A stretch of DNA of 64,000 nt from an uncultured Muribaculaceae bacterium (GTDB lineage Bacteria; Bacillota_I; Bacilli_A; RF39; UBA660): the NCBI GenBank assembly GCA_964546995.1, contig CAZJKO010000002.1, positions 3,498 through 67,497 of the forward strand, read 5' to 3'. Below are positions 47,770 to 51,825 of the stretch, piece after piece; within the stretch, counting starts at the first letter, position 1, and each line of letters begins with the position of its first letter. The translations under genes and the position numbers were made by a program. The notes under the pieces were generated by a model, which was given only the letters and a program-made list of their open reading frames with translations, was not told where the DNA came from and did no database searches.

Positions 47770-49365
47770 CTAAAAAATACCAACAACTTTTGAATCGACA
47801 AAATCGATTTGTTCATAATTAGGTGACTTAGGTAACCCTGGCATCATAAGTACATTACCTAAAAGAACCGTAACAAAACCCGCACCATGATTAATAAAAA
47901 TATCACTGACATGAATCGTCGTAGAAAGAGGATACCCCAAACGCTTTGCATCATCAGAAATAGAATACTGTGTTTTAGAAACACAAAGAGGTAAATTCAT
48001 AAGTCCAAGTTCCTCTAACTGTTTTAATTTTTCTTTAGCTAAATCCGTGTATTCTATCTTTTCAGCATGATATACTTTTTTAGCAAGAACACGAAGTTTT
48101 TCTGTAATTGGCATATTGATATCGAAAAGAGGAGTAAAATGATGTTCTTTTTGAATTTCATAGCATACGGTTTCAGCAAGACGAATTGCGCCATTTCCCC
48201 CATCGACATAAGCCGTACTTTCTTCACATGGAACATCTTGTTTTTCCACATAGGATTTAACACAGGCAACATCTTCGAAAGAATCATCAGAAAAACGATT
48301 GATACAAACGACAAGTGGTATATGGTATTCCTTTAAATGATCGATATGAGCTTGTAAATTAGAAAGACCTTTTTCTAAATCACCCTCCCCGTGATGTTTT
48401 AAAGCTCGAACAGTGGCCACCAAAACGACAAGATCAGGCGAAAAAGAAGCAATAGGACATACCATATCTAAAAACTTCTCTGCCCCAAGATCAGACCCAA
48501 AACCAGCTTCGGTAATTACATAATCGGATAAAGACAAAGCAAGTGATGTTGCCTGAACACTACTACACCCGTGAGCAATATTAGCAAATGGTCCACCGTG
48601 GATGAGACAAGGTGTTCCCTCTAACGTTTGCACCAAATTAGGAACAAACGCATCTTTTAACAATACCGTTAATGCTCCCTCTATTCTTAAATCTGAAACA
48701 AAAACAGGTTGCTTCAAAGAATTGTATCCCACAATAATTTTAGAAAGACGCATCTTTAAATCAGATAGAGAAGTAGCAAGACAAAAAAGTGCCATCACTT
48801 CACTAGCGGCCGTAATTCGAAACGAATCTCCATATTCTTCCTTATTACAAACAACCTTCACATGTCTTAAACTTCGATCATTCACATCCAAACAACGATG
48901 AAATGTAACAGTCTTAATATCCAAAAGATTTCCCTGTTCAATATGATTATAAATAGCAGCACTGATCAAATTGTTCGCCGCAGTAATCGCATGAAAATCC
49001 CCAGTAAAATGAAGATTGATATCGACCATTGGAACAACTTGACTGTATCCTCCACCTGTCGCTCCTCCCTTTAACCCAAATACAGGTCCAAGCGATGGTT
49101 GCCTAAGAGATAGACAAACACTCTGAGAAAGTTTCGAAAACGCATCAGCAAGCCCAATACTAACTGTCGTTTTCCCTTCTCCATAAGGTGTAGGATTAAT
49201 CGCGGTAACCAAAATAAGCTTACCATTTTTCCCTCTACCTAAACTTTGAACCTTAGCCTTATCCTTCCCATAAAAACAGAGTTCATCTTCACGTAATCCT
49301 AACCTTTGGGAAATTTCTCTAATATCTCTTACGGAAACACTACTAGCAATCTCTAAATCTGTCAT
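47770..49365 (-). CDS. fhs: formate--tetrahydrofolate ligase
   Basis: MTDLEIASS... and P-loop PTPYGEGKTT. Start at ATG 49365 with RBS GAGGTGAAAG (the ORF track adds 17 codons). Confidence 0.9.
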   Translation of the reverse strand: MTDLEIASSVSVRDIREISQRLGLREDELCFYGKDKAKVQSLGRGKNGKLILVTAINPTPYGEGKTTVSIGLADAFSKLSQSVCLSLRQPSLGPVFGLKGGATGGGYSQVVPMVDINLHFTGDFHAITAANNLISAAIYNHIEQGNLLDIKTVTFHRCLDVNDRSLRHVKVVCNKEEYGDSFRITAASEVMALFCLATSLSDLKMRLSKIIVGYNSLKQPVFVSDLRIEGALTVLLKDAFVPNLVQTLEGTPCLIHGGPFANIAHGCSSVQATSLALSLSDYVITEAGFGSDLGAEKFLDMVCPIASFSPDLVVLVATVRALKHHGEGDLEKGLSNLQAHIDHLKEYHIPLVVCINRFSDDSFEDVACVKSYVEKQDVPCEESTAYVDGGNGAIRLAETVCYEIQKEHHFTPLFDINMPITEKLRVLAKKVYHAEKIEYTDLAKEKLKQLEELGLMNLPLCVSKTQYSISDDAKRLGYPLSTTIHVSDIFINHGAGFVTVLLGNVLMMPGLPKSPNYEQIDFVDSKVVGIF

Positions 49366-49450
49366 AGTATCCCTTCTTTCACCTCTATTATATACTAGCC
49401 ACCAAAGAAAAACCACAATTAAATAAAATATATCATTAATTTATATAAAA

Positions 49451-50344
49451 CTAAAAAAGAACAATCTCTTGTATCTTAGAAATCAAGAGATCACACACAT
49501 CTTTATCGCAAATTAAAGTAATAGAAAATGTTTTATGACCGATTCTATTAACACTAGCGCCACAATGATAAACAACATGACTATCTAGTACAAAGTATCG
49601 ATCATGAAAAGAATGATCATATACAACTTTTAAATTATGATACTGTTGATTATATTTTAGAATATCCTGACTCGTTAATAAACAATCTTTTCTCGTTATA
49701 ATTGTTACATTGACATTTAATCTTTTTATAATATTTAATAAAGTATAATCGGCATAAGCATCAATGATTGTAATTTGTTTTTTTGCTTCAGCAAATATTT
49801 CTTGTATTTTAGAATAGGCATCAAAAATTTGACCATCAAAATATATCTCATTTACTTTTCTTTTTTCATCTAATTTTTGAAACGTTTCTTTTAAAAAATG
49901 AATACTATTATCGTGTTCTAATATTTTTGTTTCAATATTAGATAATCGATATTCATTATTTCCAATATAACGTTTCATAGTAACAAAAGCACGCATAATG
50001 TCTACACTTACTGAAGATGCTACGCTTGTTTTAAGAACACTTGAAAGCATAGCAACACCTTGTTCTGTAAAAACATATGGCAATTTTCTGACACCACCAT
50101 GATTATTAAATCTTGAAGTTCCAAATTGGAACTTCAAGTTATCATACTCTTCTTTAGTCAATTGAAAATAAAAATCTTTAGGAAATCGTTCAATGTTTCT
50201 ATTAACTGCTTTATTAACATCTTTTGTTCCATTTGTACATTCATAAAGTTTTGCCAAATCACGATCAAGCATCACTTGCTTTCCTCTTATCTCATATATC
50301 ATATCTTCTATTTTTTCATTCTCTTTTATTATTAAACCATTCAT
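49451..50344 (-). CDS. ORF6N-domain protein with C-terminal single PLD/HKD-like domain (HxR(x)4D...GxSxN variant), paralog 1
   Basis: N-terminus IEDMIYEIRGKQVMLDRDLAKLYECTNGTKDVNKAVNRNIERFPKDFYFQLTKEE matches the ORF6N (KilA-N-related) pattern. C-terminus ...ITIIDAYADYTLLNIIKRLNVNVTIITRK...LKVVYDHSFHDRYFVLDSHVVYHCGASVNRIG has PLD-like topology and motif. Start placed at MNGLII (ATG 50344). Confidence 0.6.
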   Translation of the reverse strand: MNGLIIKENEKIEDMIYEIRGKQVMLDRDLAKLYECTNGTKDVNKAVNRNIERFPKDFYFQLTKEEYDNLKFQFGTSRFNNHGGVRKLPYVFTEQGVAMLSSVLKTSVASSVSVDIMRAFVTMKRYIGNNEYRLSNIETKILEHDNSIHFLKETFQKLDEKRKVNEIYFDGQIFDAYSKIQEIFAEAKKQITIIDAYADYTLLNIIKRLNVNVTIITRKDCLLTSQDILKYNQQYHNLKVVYDHSFHDRYFVLDSHVVYHCGASVNRIGHKTFSITLICDKDVCDLLISKIQEIVLF

Positions 50345-50475
50345 TGTATCACCATCTTTCTTCACAACAATGTATTAAAATTTCAAAATATCTATATAAT
50401 ATTAACTAATCTTTCACTTAATACATTTAACATATTCATAAAAATGCTTTTATATTTTTCGACAAAACTTCTAAA

Positions 50476-51369
50476 CTAAAAAAGAACAATCTCTTGTATC
50501 TTAGAAACCAACAGATCACACACATCTTTATCGCAAATTAAAGTAATAGAAAATGTCTTATATCCGATTCTATTAATACTCGCTCCACAATGATAAACAA
50601 CATGATTGTCTAGTACAAAGTATCGATCATGAAAAGAATGATCATATACAACTTTCAAATTATGATACTGCTTATTGTATTTTAAAATATCCTGACTCGT
50701 TAATAAACAATCTTTTCTCGTTATAATTATTATTTTTACATTTAATCTTTTTATAATATCCAATAAAGTATAATCGGCATAAGCATCAATAATTGTAATT
50801 TGTTTTTTTGCTTCAGCAAATATTTCTTGTATTTTAGAATAGGCATCAAAAATTTGACCATCAAAATATATCTCACTCACTTTTCTTTTTTCATCAAACC
50901 TCTTAAAAGATTCTTGCAACAACTTAATATCTTCTGTATTTTTCATCACTTGATTATTTATGAATTTTTGTTCTAACAAGTTTGAAGATATATATTTTCG
51001 CATTGTTACAAAAGCATCCATTATAGCTATGCTTACTTCTGTTGCAATTTTCGACTTTATTATAGTAGCAAGCATTGCAACACCTTGCTCAGTAAACACT
51101 CTTGGATTTTTGTATTTACCTCCACGTGTTTCAATTTTTTGGTCAAAAATTTTGACCAAAAAATTCTGACTTTCCAAATCGGATAATCTCCAAGAAAATC
51201 TTTCAGGAAACTTATCAATATTATTTCTTACAGCCTGATTTATTTCTTTCGTACCATTCTTGCATCCATAAAGTTTTGCCAAATCACTATCGAGCATCAC
51301 TTGCTTTCCTCTTATTTCATATATCATATCTTCTATTTTTTCATTCTCTTTTATTGTTAAACCATTCAT
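50476..51369 (-). CDS. ORF6N-domain protein with C-terminal PLD/HKD-like domain, paralog 2 (tandem duplicate)
   Basis: Same architecture. First about 45 aa and last about 140 aa nearly identical to paralog 1; central about 120 aa strongly diverged. The 3' flank (AAAAAAGAACAATCTCTTGTATCTTAGAAA...) is duplicated along with the gene. Confidence 0.6.
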   Translation of the reverse strand: MNGLTIKENEKIEDMIYEIRGKQVMLDSDLAKLYGCKNGTKEINQAVRNNIDKFPERFSWRLSDLESQNFLVKIFDQKIETRGGKYKNPRVFTEQGVAMLATIIKSKIATEVSIAIMDAFVTMRKYISSNLLEQKFINNQVMKNTEDIKLLQESFKRFDEKRKVSEIYFDGQIFDAYSKIQEIFAEAKKQITIIDAYADYTLLDIIKRLNVKIIIITRKDCLLTSQDILKYNKQYHNLKVVYDHSFHDRYFVLDNHVVYHCGASINRIGYKTFSITLICDKDVCDLLVSKIQEIVLF

Positions 51370-51532
51370 TAAATCACCATCTTTCTCCCACCAATAAAAG
51401 ATCTTGTTCATTTCACAAATCAACATTATAATACGAACATATATTTGTCAATTTGTTTTTGCACTTTTGATAATTTTTTTAAACATCAAAAAAAGATAGG
51501 AAAATCCTATCTTTTAAGTTATAAAGAACTAA

Positions 51533-51745
51533 TTACTTAGTTTGGTTGTTATAACTTCCACTGATTTGGTTTAATCCGTTTTGAACTAAACGTTTTGTAA
51601 TTTCACCACCAACACTACCGTTAGCACGTGAAGTAGCATCAGGTCCTAAATTAACACCGAATTCGTTAGCGATTTCATATTTCATACGATCGATAGCTTG
51701 TTTAGCACCAGGTACTCTCATTTTAGAGTTTGAATTGTTATTCAT
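51533..51745 (-). CDS. alpha/beta-type small acid-soluble spore protein (SASP)
   Basis: [54 protein letters not shown] is the canonical alpha/beta SASP signature. ATG at 51745 with RBS GGAGGTG. Upstream GTATG-N17-CATTCTA (51769..51798, minus strand) resembles a sigma-G/F forespore promoter. Confidence 0.8.
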
Positions 51746-51825
51746 TTGTTTCACCTCCTATACACTAATAGAATGTGAAAAAATGAATTTTTCATACACA
51801 AAACAGTGTGGTAATTTTTACCGTT

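Follow-up and report, generated by a model that had tools for sequence, protein, structure and literature searches.

The window analyzed here, a 64,000-nucleotide (nt) stretch of contig CAZJKO010000002.1 from an uncultured bacterium (assembly GCA_964546995.1), carries two adjacent genes, referred to as A and B, that lie in the same orientation on the minus strand between fhs (47770-49416) and a SASP gene (51533-51754). Each encodes an N-terminal ORF6N domain, a helical linker and a C-terminal domain predicted to have the fold of the phospholipase D (PLD) superfamily, with a variant of the HKD motif, and the middle part of each gene appears to behave as an exchangeable cassette. An earlier note, made from the sequence alone, had described two adjacent open reading frames (ORFs) of 304 and 316 residues at this site, and their coordinates and minus-strand orientation were confirmed. 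In the ORF track, A extends from 49451 to 50365 (304 residues, GTG start) and B from 50476 to 51426 (316 residues, ATG start). These lengths hold for the ORFs, but the true products most likely begin at internal ATG codons (50344 in A and 51369 in B) and have 297 residues apiece, a choice that is justified further below. The two genes are:

49451..50344, minus strand: gene A, likely coding sequence of 297 residues plus stop (the ORF track reaches a GTG at 50365; PDLC04869 match)
50476..51369, minus strand: gene B, likely coding sequence of 297 residues plus stop (the ORF track reaches an ATG at 51426; PDLC04869 match)

The neighbours of the pair are fhs, ndk, ackA, SASP and thiI; the identities of fhs, SASP and ndk are backed by Pfam annotation of a syntenic contig, L001, from a related genome. 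The two ORFs align by BLASTP over 304 residues without a gap, at 70% identity (E=8e-163). In what follows, segments are numbered on the 297-residue scale, and motif residues (e.g. H254) on the scale of the 304-residue ORF of A.

The ORF6N domain (PF10543) that the earlier note had expected was found in both proteins, with 113.4 bits in A and 86.8 bits in B against a gathering threshold of 27.8:

50036..50302, minus strand: ORF6N domain of A (PF10543, E=6.3e-33, residues 22-110 of the 304-residue ORF)
51061..51327, minus strand: ORF6N domain of B (PF10543, E=1.2e-24, residues 34-122 of the 316-residue ORF)

Virulence_RhuM (PF13310) gave no match to A or B at E<=1. Both proteins match model PDLC04869 of PADLOC PDC-S05, a single-gene anti-phage candidate, over their full length (A, E=2.8e-92; B, E=6.2e-83); in A, residues 12-299 of 304 align to profile positions 10-301 of 306. 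This match supports the former suggestion of a defence-like pair. The C-domain alone matches PDLC04869 and PDLC04879, and no other PDC-S05 models contain it. As the C-domain occurs in just these two of the many PDC-S05 models, PDC-S05 must be heterogeneous, and by profile matching A and B are members of it via the subgroup that combines ORF6N with the C-domain. This architecture is already catalogued by PADLOC, so that A and B are new members and not a new kind, and the novelty of the pair is limited by its membership in a catalogued family.

The PHROG "anti-repressor" models also match (phrog_4792, E=4e-25 and 5e-20), and there are weak Phage_pRha matches in the Pfam scan of A and B. Both would fit prophage-derived anti-repressor or regulatory genes of the Ant/KilA-N-like type, an explanation that we consider very improbable. 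The PHROG matches are confined to the N-terminal part (residues ~21-154); of 50,697 phage records, no more than 4 contain the C-domain, and these are all unannotated faecal contigs; and no phage genes are found among the neighbours listed above. In the Foldseek viral library, the best matches are poxvirus F13 and giant-virus PLD-like proteins, i.e. generic eukaryotic-virus PLD proteins. With the C-domain near-absent from phage records and no viral structural kin beyond generic PLD, a prophage origin was rejected.

The C-terminal ~140 residues, described in the earlier note as near-identical, share 93% amino acid identity between the two proteins:

49454..49870, minus strand: PLD-like C-terminal domain of A (residues 159-297; AlphaFold pLDDT 89.6, pTM 0.85; Foldseek)
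50479..50895, minus strand: PLD-like C-terminal domain of B (residues 159-297; 93% amino acid and 94.2% nt identity to the domain of A)

This domain is annotated by neither Pfam nor NCBIfam. In the AlphaFold full-length model it reaches a pLDDT of 80-91 and the linker is disordered; the figures listed for A are those of the domain-only model. Foldseek comparison of the full-length model with the PDB returned 41 matches at E<=1e-3, every one from the PLD superfamily, including TrmBL2, NucT (1.1e-5), FAM83, Zucchini, PLD1/2, PLD3/4 and MITD1. Likewise, the 23 best PDB matches of the domain model are all PLD-superfamily members: TrmBL2 (5.8e-5), MITD1, bacterial PLD, PLD3/4, Zucchini (TMq 0.57) and TrmB, and further vaccinia F13, PPK, SauUSI (TMq 0.61) and Tdp1. 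The matches include several nucleases (NucT, Zucchini, PLD3/4 and SauUSI). By these models the C-domain is predicted to have the PLD-superfamily alpha/beta fold, as had been proposed from its sequence.

A match to PLDc_2, for which the earlier note had proposed a test, was found in relatives but not in A and B themselves. PLDc_2 is matched by 6 of 83 diverse relatives (E<=1e-3; best E=4.9e-5). The family consensus matches it as well (E=2.1e-5), in an alignment that covers profile positions 1-94 of 132 and with them the HxK…D strand. No match to Regulator_TrmB (PF11495) or TrmB was found in A, B, the 83 relatives or the consensus, and, unlike PLDc_2, MIT_C is not linked to the family in sequence. 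When the PDB was searched by sequence, phmmer with A gave no match and the C-domain profile gave chance-level matches only (E>=0.07). The consensus also matches the PLD nuclease MkoB of Mokosh marginally (E=0.039). For comparison with Nuc, a genuine IncN-plasmid Nuc gene was aligned with the family by hhalign, both singly and as a 38-sequence profile. The family line AKK-IIIID…V-V-iiT…FHDRF-I-D falls over A-SIRMM-Y…GVDVKIV-D…QHDKVIIVD of Nuc, placing H-D-R…D on H-D-K…D. As a separate observation, the C-domain has a sub-threshold NCBIfam match to VPA1262_N_dom (NF040700; E=5.7e-7, profile positions 314-452 of 478), spanning window positions 49454-49840 and residues 175-278 of A; this Vibrio family may hold a related PLD-like module.

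The H-D-R…D stretch belongs to a longer conserved motif:

49532..49606, minus strand: variant HKD-type motif of A, HDRYFVLDSHVVYHCGASVNRIGHK (read from the sequence; conservation in relatives)
50557..50631, minus strand: variant HKD-type motif of B, HDRYFVLDNHVVYHCGASINRIGYK (read from the sequence; conservation in relatives)

For A and B together the motif reads HDRYFVLD(S/N)HVVYHCGAS(V/I)NRIG(H/Y)K, and its family-wide form is H-D-R-x4-D-x4-Y-H-x-G-x-S-x-(K/N)-x2-G-x-K. Conservation was determined in 98 diverse full-length domains that are 35-45% identical overall. It amounts to 98% for H254, 100% for D255, 97% for R256 and 100% for D261; to 99% for Y266, 86% for H267, 100% for G269, 99% for S271, 98% for G276 and 85% for K278; and, outside the motif, to 99% for G178, 91% for D182, 98% for D202 and 95% for Y204. 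Since R256 is kept at 97% across such diverse domains, HxR is a trait of the family and not a peculiarity of this pair. The H-x-R-x4-D…G-x-S-x-N pattern proposed in the earlier note is thus upheld for its H, D, R, D, G and S positions (97-100%) but not for the last one, as position 273 is divided between K (52%) and N (46%). Conservation of the motif at such low overall identity argues for a functional pocket, which is less than a proof of catalysis. The findings that the earlier note had named as refuting its reading, a C-domain of some other fold and a lack of motif conservation in homologs, were both looked for, and neither was obtained.

TrmB and TrmBL2 are the closest solved structures, and they resemble A and B in having a DNA-binding N-domain, a helical linker and a PLD-fold C-domain. 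The main rival explanation, which we regard as unlikely, takes up this resemblance: the PLD-like domain would be non-catalytic, and A and B would be TrmB/TrmBL2-style DNA-binding regulators or chromatin-type proteins in which the linker dimerises, the PLD-fold domain serves oligomerisation or phosphate-ligand sensing, and the conserved H/R/D/S residues bind a ligand. TrmBL2 is indeed the top PDB match for both models (in the domain model E=5.8e-5, with 19-20% identity), its full-length alignment extends over ~288 columns, which reflects the equal domain order, and MITD1, TrmB and FAM83 also rank high. Moreover, the Lys-to-Arg change and the altered spacing depart from the catalytic consensus, and no Pfam PLD family is matched at threshold. 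However, the H, D, R, D, G and S residues stay at 97-100% among relatives so dissimilar overall, and none of the established non-catalytic PLD-fold proteins is known to have retained the HKD residues. The sequence ties of the family lead to PLDc_2 and not to Regulator_TrmB or MIT_C. The N-domain of TrmB and TrmBL2 is a winged helix and that of A and B is ORF6N, the conserved His/Arg/Asp/Ser constellation is a feature of the A/B family, and the full-length superposition on TrmBL2 is poor (root-mean-square deviation 18-25 Å, TM 0.3). Finally, the swapping of N-modules and the presence of family genes in restriction-modification (R-M) operons and mobile elements, both described below, are more in keeping with an effector than with a housekeeping regulator.

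Between the conserved ends of the two genes lies a strongly diverged segment:

49871..50230, minus strand: variable middle cassette of A (residues 39-158), comprising the distal ORF6N and the helical linker
50896..51255, minus strand: variable middle cassette of B (residues 39-158; 97.8% nt and 99% amino acid identity to gene Y (P0111), in the fhs-proximal slot of L001)

The mosaic with a diverged centre that had been noticed earlier was borne out by segment-wise comparison. Amino acid identity of A and B is 89% in the N-segment (1-38), 39% in the middle (39-158) and 93% in the C-segment (159-297), and the corresponding nt identities are 93, 54 and 94%. The identity of the C-segment exceeds that of the middle by 54 points, whereas the same difference amounts to 4.5 +/- 7.8 points, and to 26 at most, in 3000 randomly drawn pairs of non-adjacent family members; the mosaic therefore lies beyond ordinary rate variation. 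The middle of A is 78% identical to P0004 and that of B is 99% identical to P0111, with its next-best relatives at ~60%. As the two middle segments belong to different lineages, a plain tandem duplication with later divergence does not account for the pair.

L001, the source of P0111, has the order thiI, SASP, X, Y, fhs, ndk, and its flanks are 86-89% identical (nt) to those of the window. Alignment of L001:1119-3113 with window positions 49451-51426 revealed that the cassettes have changed slots: gene X, next to SASP, carries the A-type cassette, and gene Y, next to fhs, the B-type one, the reverse of the window, while the spacer and the N- and C-segments stay collinear. At the nt level, the two genomes share 98.3% (A-X) and 97.8% (B-Y) identity in the cassettes, 89.7-91.4% in the C-segments and 86.3% in fhs (Fisher tests: middle versus C-segment, p=7e-11; middle versus fhs, p=2e-22). 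Only 1 nonsynonymous versus 5-7 synonymous codon changes separate the cassettes in 120 codons, which indicates purifying selection on them. Cassettes at ~98% identity next to housekeeping genes at 86-88% suggest that the cassettes have recently been exchanged between lineages, or so it appears from these comparisons. In another relative (L086, 4354-5244), a lone A-type gene adjoins fhs. Its middle and C-segments are 98-99% identical to those of A, its N-segment is different (78% nt identity), and yunB lies upstream where the window has B and SASP. With a single gene and an altered neighbour, this locus indicates that the array varies between close relatives.

Arrays of two to three same-strand copies were found in 10 of 79 reference loci, and most of them have conserved ends (81-94%) and diverged middles (47-74%). 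One locus from a gut Bacilli metagenome-assembled genome (MAG), L013:7119-9800, has three abutting copies with spacers of 0-3 nt; the arrays at L004, L010, L011, L021, L045 and L063 are also from gut Bacilli MAGs. The slot swap, the array pattern and the L086 gene together support the earlier idea of a diversified region or gene conversion. Recombination via the conserved end segments is the simplest reading of the swap, and it could have followed either of two routes: excision via the C-repeats and then re-integration via the N-repeats; or double gene conversion. Within a genome, the C-segments differ at 13 and 16 synonymous sites, versus 21-23 between genomes (p=0.044, from comparisons that are non-independent), so that ongoing concerted evolution, i.e. 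within-genome homogenisation of the C-segments, finds weak support at most. The cassette includes two long linker helices (107-128 and 144-162 in the model) in addition to the distal ORF6N, and could for this reason set target and partner specificity.

Short ORF6N or RhuM fragments, conserved across several contigs, were seen behind full-length family genes. In capsule/polysaccharide loci, full-length genes are followed by ORF6N fragments of 116 residues (L088:6942-7292, also L089-L091) or by a RhuM fragment of 106 residues (L087:7066-7386). Such fragments may represent tandem copies in decay, or else silent cassettes that serve as donors.

An exhaustive search with the C-domain only, counted as representatives at 50% identity, gave a family of 1967 members at E<=1e-3 and 644 at E<=1e-10; in the best 150 of the 1967 matches the domain is at or near the C-terminus. 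Among the 83 relatives, its partner is ORF6N in 45 and an N-terminal RhuM module in 18; other partners are Rha, Bro-N, HTH_17, MarR and, once, MazG. Forms of ~400 residues carry two ORF6N domains, or Bro-N plus ORF6N. The C-domain-bearing "RhuM" relatives match the RhuM profile, which has 252 positions, at positions ~1-85 only. The same C-domain behind such varied N-modules is consistent with a constant module placed on interchangeable, mostly DNA-binding-type modules. The MazG case (P0121, 253 residues) is a nucleotide pyrophosphohydrolase fused to a C-domain that is 68% identical to that of A, and it hints at a nucleotide-related substrate or signal.

There are more than 7997 close homologs and, among GTDB species representatives, at least 580 loci. 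Related loci were found with a closer full-length alignment as the query. The closest come from uncultured gut Bacilli MAGs (Ca. Onthousia, Aphodocola, Caccenecus, "Tenericutes") and more distant ones from Bacteroidota. Housekeeping genes (ackA, ftsW/rodA, mraY, pfl, dnaJ) directly flank the family genes in 37 Bacilli loci; there, defence-like neighbours are limited to extra RhuM, ORF6N or Fic genes, and neither R-M genes nor a classical defence-island context was found. No partner gene is obligatory, as neighbours differ among loci and the recurrent ones are family, RhuM or Fic genes only.

Outside the Bacilli, a complete type I R-M operon in a Ferruginibacter MAG (L078:6373-13618) has a family gene inserted between its hsdM and hsdS genes. 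In Flavobacteriia and Sphingobacteriia (L071:4027-8855, L073:9002-14855, L066, L067, L075-L077, L079 and L080), a conserved block is found that consists of HTH_17, DUF4099/DUF3945, topoisomerase III, the family gene, DUF1896 and a 1813-residue N6-methylase/helicase; the family gene overlaps the 3' end of the topoisomerase III gene, and this topoisomerase III-DUF1896 block looks like a conjugative-transposon region. Family genes were also present on 59 plasmids (18 of them conjugative), mostly from Bacteroides, where RefSeq names them "RhuM family protein" or "ORF6N domain-containing protein"; one Bacteroides plasmid copy adjoins an AAA ATPase and a retron-type HNH gene.

This distribution raises another explanation, that the family is a toxin or selfish module serving mobile elements (in plasmid or integrative and conjugative element competition, exclusion or anti-defence), of which the gut Bacilli copies would be domesticated or decaying remnants. 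The Flavobacteriia conjugative-element block, the plasmids, the proposal of RhuM-like toxins (PMC3710099), the truncated copies behind full-length ones and the low GC content of the genes would all suit it. We nevertheless judge it improbable, because both copies in the window are intact and their middle cassettes appear to be under purifying selection, no antitoxin-like small partner is conserved alongside, and no mobile-element genes flank the pair.

Comparison with known systems clarifies what A and B could be doing. Nuc, NucT and Zucchini/PLD6 are like A and B in their PLD fold, and they have a single PLD domain per chain, so that a dimer is needed for an active site. The H-D-x…D register of Nuc and of A and B is equal, but A and B have Arg for Lys and G-x-S-x-(K/N) for G-S-x-N, with 1-2 extra residues; they also have the N-terminal ORF6N module in place of the N-terminal extension that precedes the PLD domain of Nuc, and their catalysis is putative. 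SauUSI and Mokosh MkoB share the PLD fold too (TMq and E values above), but they are large, helicase-coupled proteins with a canonical HKD, whereas A and B have 297 residues and no ATPase.

BfiI is a type IIS restriction endonuclease in which PLD-type half-sites dimerise to form one metal-independent centre, with a separate DNA-binding domain providing specificity. It is probably the best functional analogy for A and B, even though its domain order is reversed, its DNA-binding domain is B3-like and not ORF6N, and it has cognate methyltransferases, none of which are present at the A/B locus; BfiI was not among the top 50 Foldseek matches. In type I R-M systems, the target-recognition domains of hsdS undergo cassette shuffling. 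The likeness to A and B would lie in conserved flanks around a strongly diverged recognition segment, which moves between neighbouring copies and between genomes; A and B differ in being direct and not inverted repeats, with no adjacent recombinase gene and no sign of programmed switching.

A toxin function has been proposed for the RhuM-like genes of R-M operons (PMC3710099), and RhuM-like genes are enriched beside type I R-M and inversion loci (PMC9881135); the Ferruginibacter relative fits this published RhuM-R-M association (PMC3710099, PMC9881135). The first ~80 profile positions are common to RhuM and the A/B family, and the rest of RhuM is replaced by the linker and the PLD-like domain. 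PDC-S05 is frequent in rumen, cold-seep, wastewater and archaeal surveys, e.g. with 3275 calls in rumen MAGs. With a PDC-S05 representative in E. coli B, plating fell ~1000-fold for T7 and T5 and ~10-fold for T4 (PMC12881386; bioRxiv 10.1101/2024.09.26.614923), and the phage-tested protein was described only as having a Virulence_RhuM domain (PMC12881386). In the literature searched, we found no link of ORF6N to a PLD fold or nuclease function, no mechanism for PDC-S05, no description of the C-domain and no paper joining TrmBL2 with phospholipase D.

By analogy with these systems, we favour the notion that A and B are ORF6N-PLD-like anti-phage candidates that act through a nuclease-defence mechanism, and we would give it about an even chance. 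Three modules would contribute: ORF6N (KilA-N-type) for nucleic-acid binding or sensing; the helical linker; and the single C-terminal PLD-superfamily domain. Judging from Nuc, Zucchini and BfiI, we infer that two chains would pair and that their half-sites would form one metal-independent phosphodiesterase centre, in which one His might act as the nucleophile and the other as the general acid, Arg256 might take the phosphate-binding role of the canonical Lys, and K/N273 might also bind phosphate. The ORF6N and linker modules would choose the nucleic-acid target, and the outcome would be cleavage of invading DNA or of another phosphodiester. The two copies would then combine a common catalytic module with unrelated recognition/linker cassettes, and recombination through the conserved ends could widen the target range. 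The cell might be spared because: a phage-specific feature is recognised; activation occurs on infection; or the substrate is something other than bulk DNA. The more specific proposal that the C-domain is an active, undescribed H-x-R clade of the PLD superfamily, serving as the effector of a modular single-gene immunity whose recognition cassette (distal ORF6N and linker) travels between tandem slots and between species and so diversifies specificity, restriction-like but without a methylase, is put forward tentatively and must be called doubtful.

Several results weigh against a nuclease-defence role. Most serious is the absence of a partner or methylase that would account for the sparing of self-DNA; in the gut Bacilli, where the neighbours are housekeeping genes and include no methylase or immunity partner, such sparing is unexplained. 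The canonical H-x-K-x4-D-x6-G-(S/G)-x-N motif does not occur, as Lys is replaced by Arg and the G/S positions are displaced by 1-2 residues. The top structural matches (TrmBL2, MITD1 and TrmB) are non-catalytic PLD-fold proteins. The C-terminal 140 residues of A and B match no Pfam family at E<=1, PLDc_2 included, and the score of the consensus against PLDc_2, 24.8 bits, is below the gathering cutoff of 27. The hhalign probability of the Nuc alignment is only 6-9%, which makes this alignment supportive and not decisive. Finally, the phage phenotype reported for the RhuM-type PDC-S05 protein may not be transferable to the ORF6N-PLD subgroup, since the tested protein is described by its RhuM domain, the RhuM profile is shared over positions ~1-85 only, and just two PDC-S05 models have the C-domain.

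Few candidate defence types are detected more often in metagenome surveys than PDC-S05, yet no mechanism has been proposed for it. Three points are new here. The structural models assign an HxR PLD fold to the C-domain, hitherto unannotated, of a large PDC-S05 subgroup; the RhuM-type protein that was tested may be no representative of the ORF6N-PLD subgroup; and the putative recognition segment swaps as a cassette between slots and genomes. A variant-HKD domain of PLD fold in a subgroup of 1967 representatives offers a testable catalytic hypothesis, with H254, R256, D261 and S271 as the candidate residues. The behaviour of the middle cassette suggests a route to specificity diversification and provides natural chimeras for mapping ORF6N recognition. 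Should the C-domain prove non-catalytic, the TrmB-like design of DNA-binding domain plus PLD-fold sensor would be extended to bacteria.

Of the remaining features of the locus, the following surround the coding sequences:

50348..50353, minus strand: GGTGAT Shine-Dalgarno-like hexamer, 3 nt 5' of the ATG of A (read from the sequence; inside a stretch conserved between the copies)
51373..51378, minus strand: GGTGAT Shine-Dalgarno-like hexamer, 3 nt 5' of the ATG of B (read from the sequence; inside a stretch conserved between the copies)
50366..50475, minus strand: A/B spacer (not repeated 3' of A; 93% nt identity to the spacer of L001)
51491..51515, minus strand: intrinsic-terminator-like hairpin after the SASP gene, upstream of B (one site found versus 0.2 expected)

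The 297-residue starts were preferred because the DNA similarity of A and B begins ~15-20 nt 5' of the internal ATG, the GGTGAT hexamer precedes it, most homologs have 291-307 residues, and the in-frame extension 5' of the ATG is not conserved in the syntenic gene X. The terminator-like hairpin, the sole such site found, belongs to the SASP gene and implies that B begins a new transcript. At the other end of the genes, the earlier note had seen a duplicated 3' flank of about 50 bp with a hairpin. The similarity in fact stops ~5 nt past the stop codon, and the inverted repeat lies within the final 40 nt of the coding sequence, where folding is unremarkable compared with shuffled sequence (z = -1.25 in A and -0.15 in B); a terminator or duplicated 3'-flank hairpin was accordingly rejected. 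The GC content of A and B is 26.6-27.7% (14-21% at third codon positions), compared with 34.2% for the window average and 33.5-39% for the adjacent genes, which fits accessory or acquired genes.

In the ORF list, fhs begins with a GTG (49416) and carries an odd N-terminal extension, MVFLWWLVYNRGERRDT (49366-49416). As the L001 ortholog has 531 residues, translation probably begins at the ATG of MTDLEIA, near 49365. The SASP gene (51533-51754) has 98% nt identity with its counterpart in L001, and its presence indicates that this low-GC lineage forms spores or had a spore-forming ancestor; several of the related MAGs are labelled "Tenericutes" or "Mycoplasma" despite the SASP gene.

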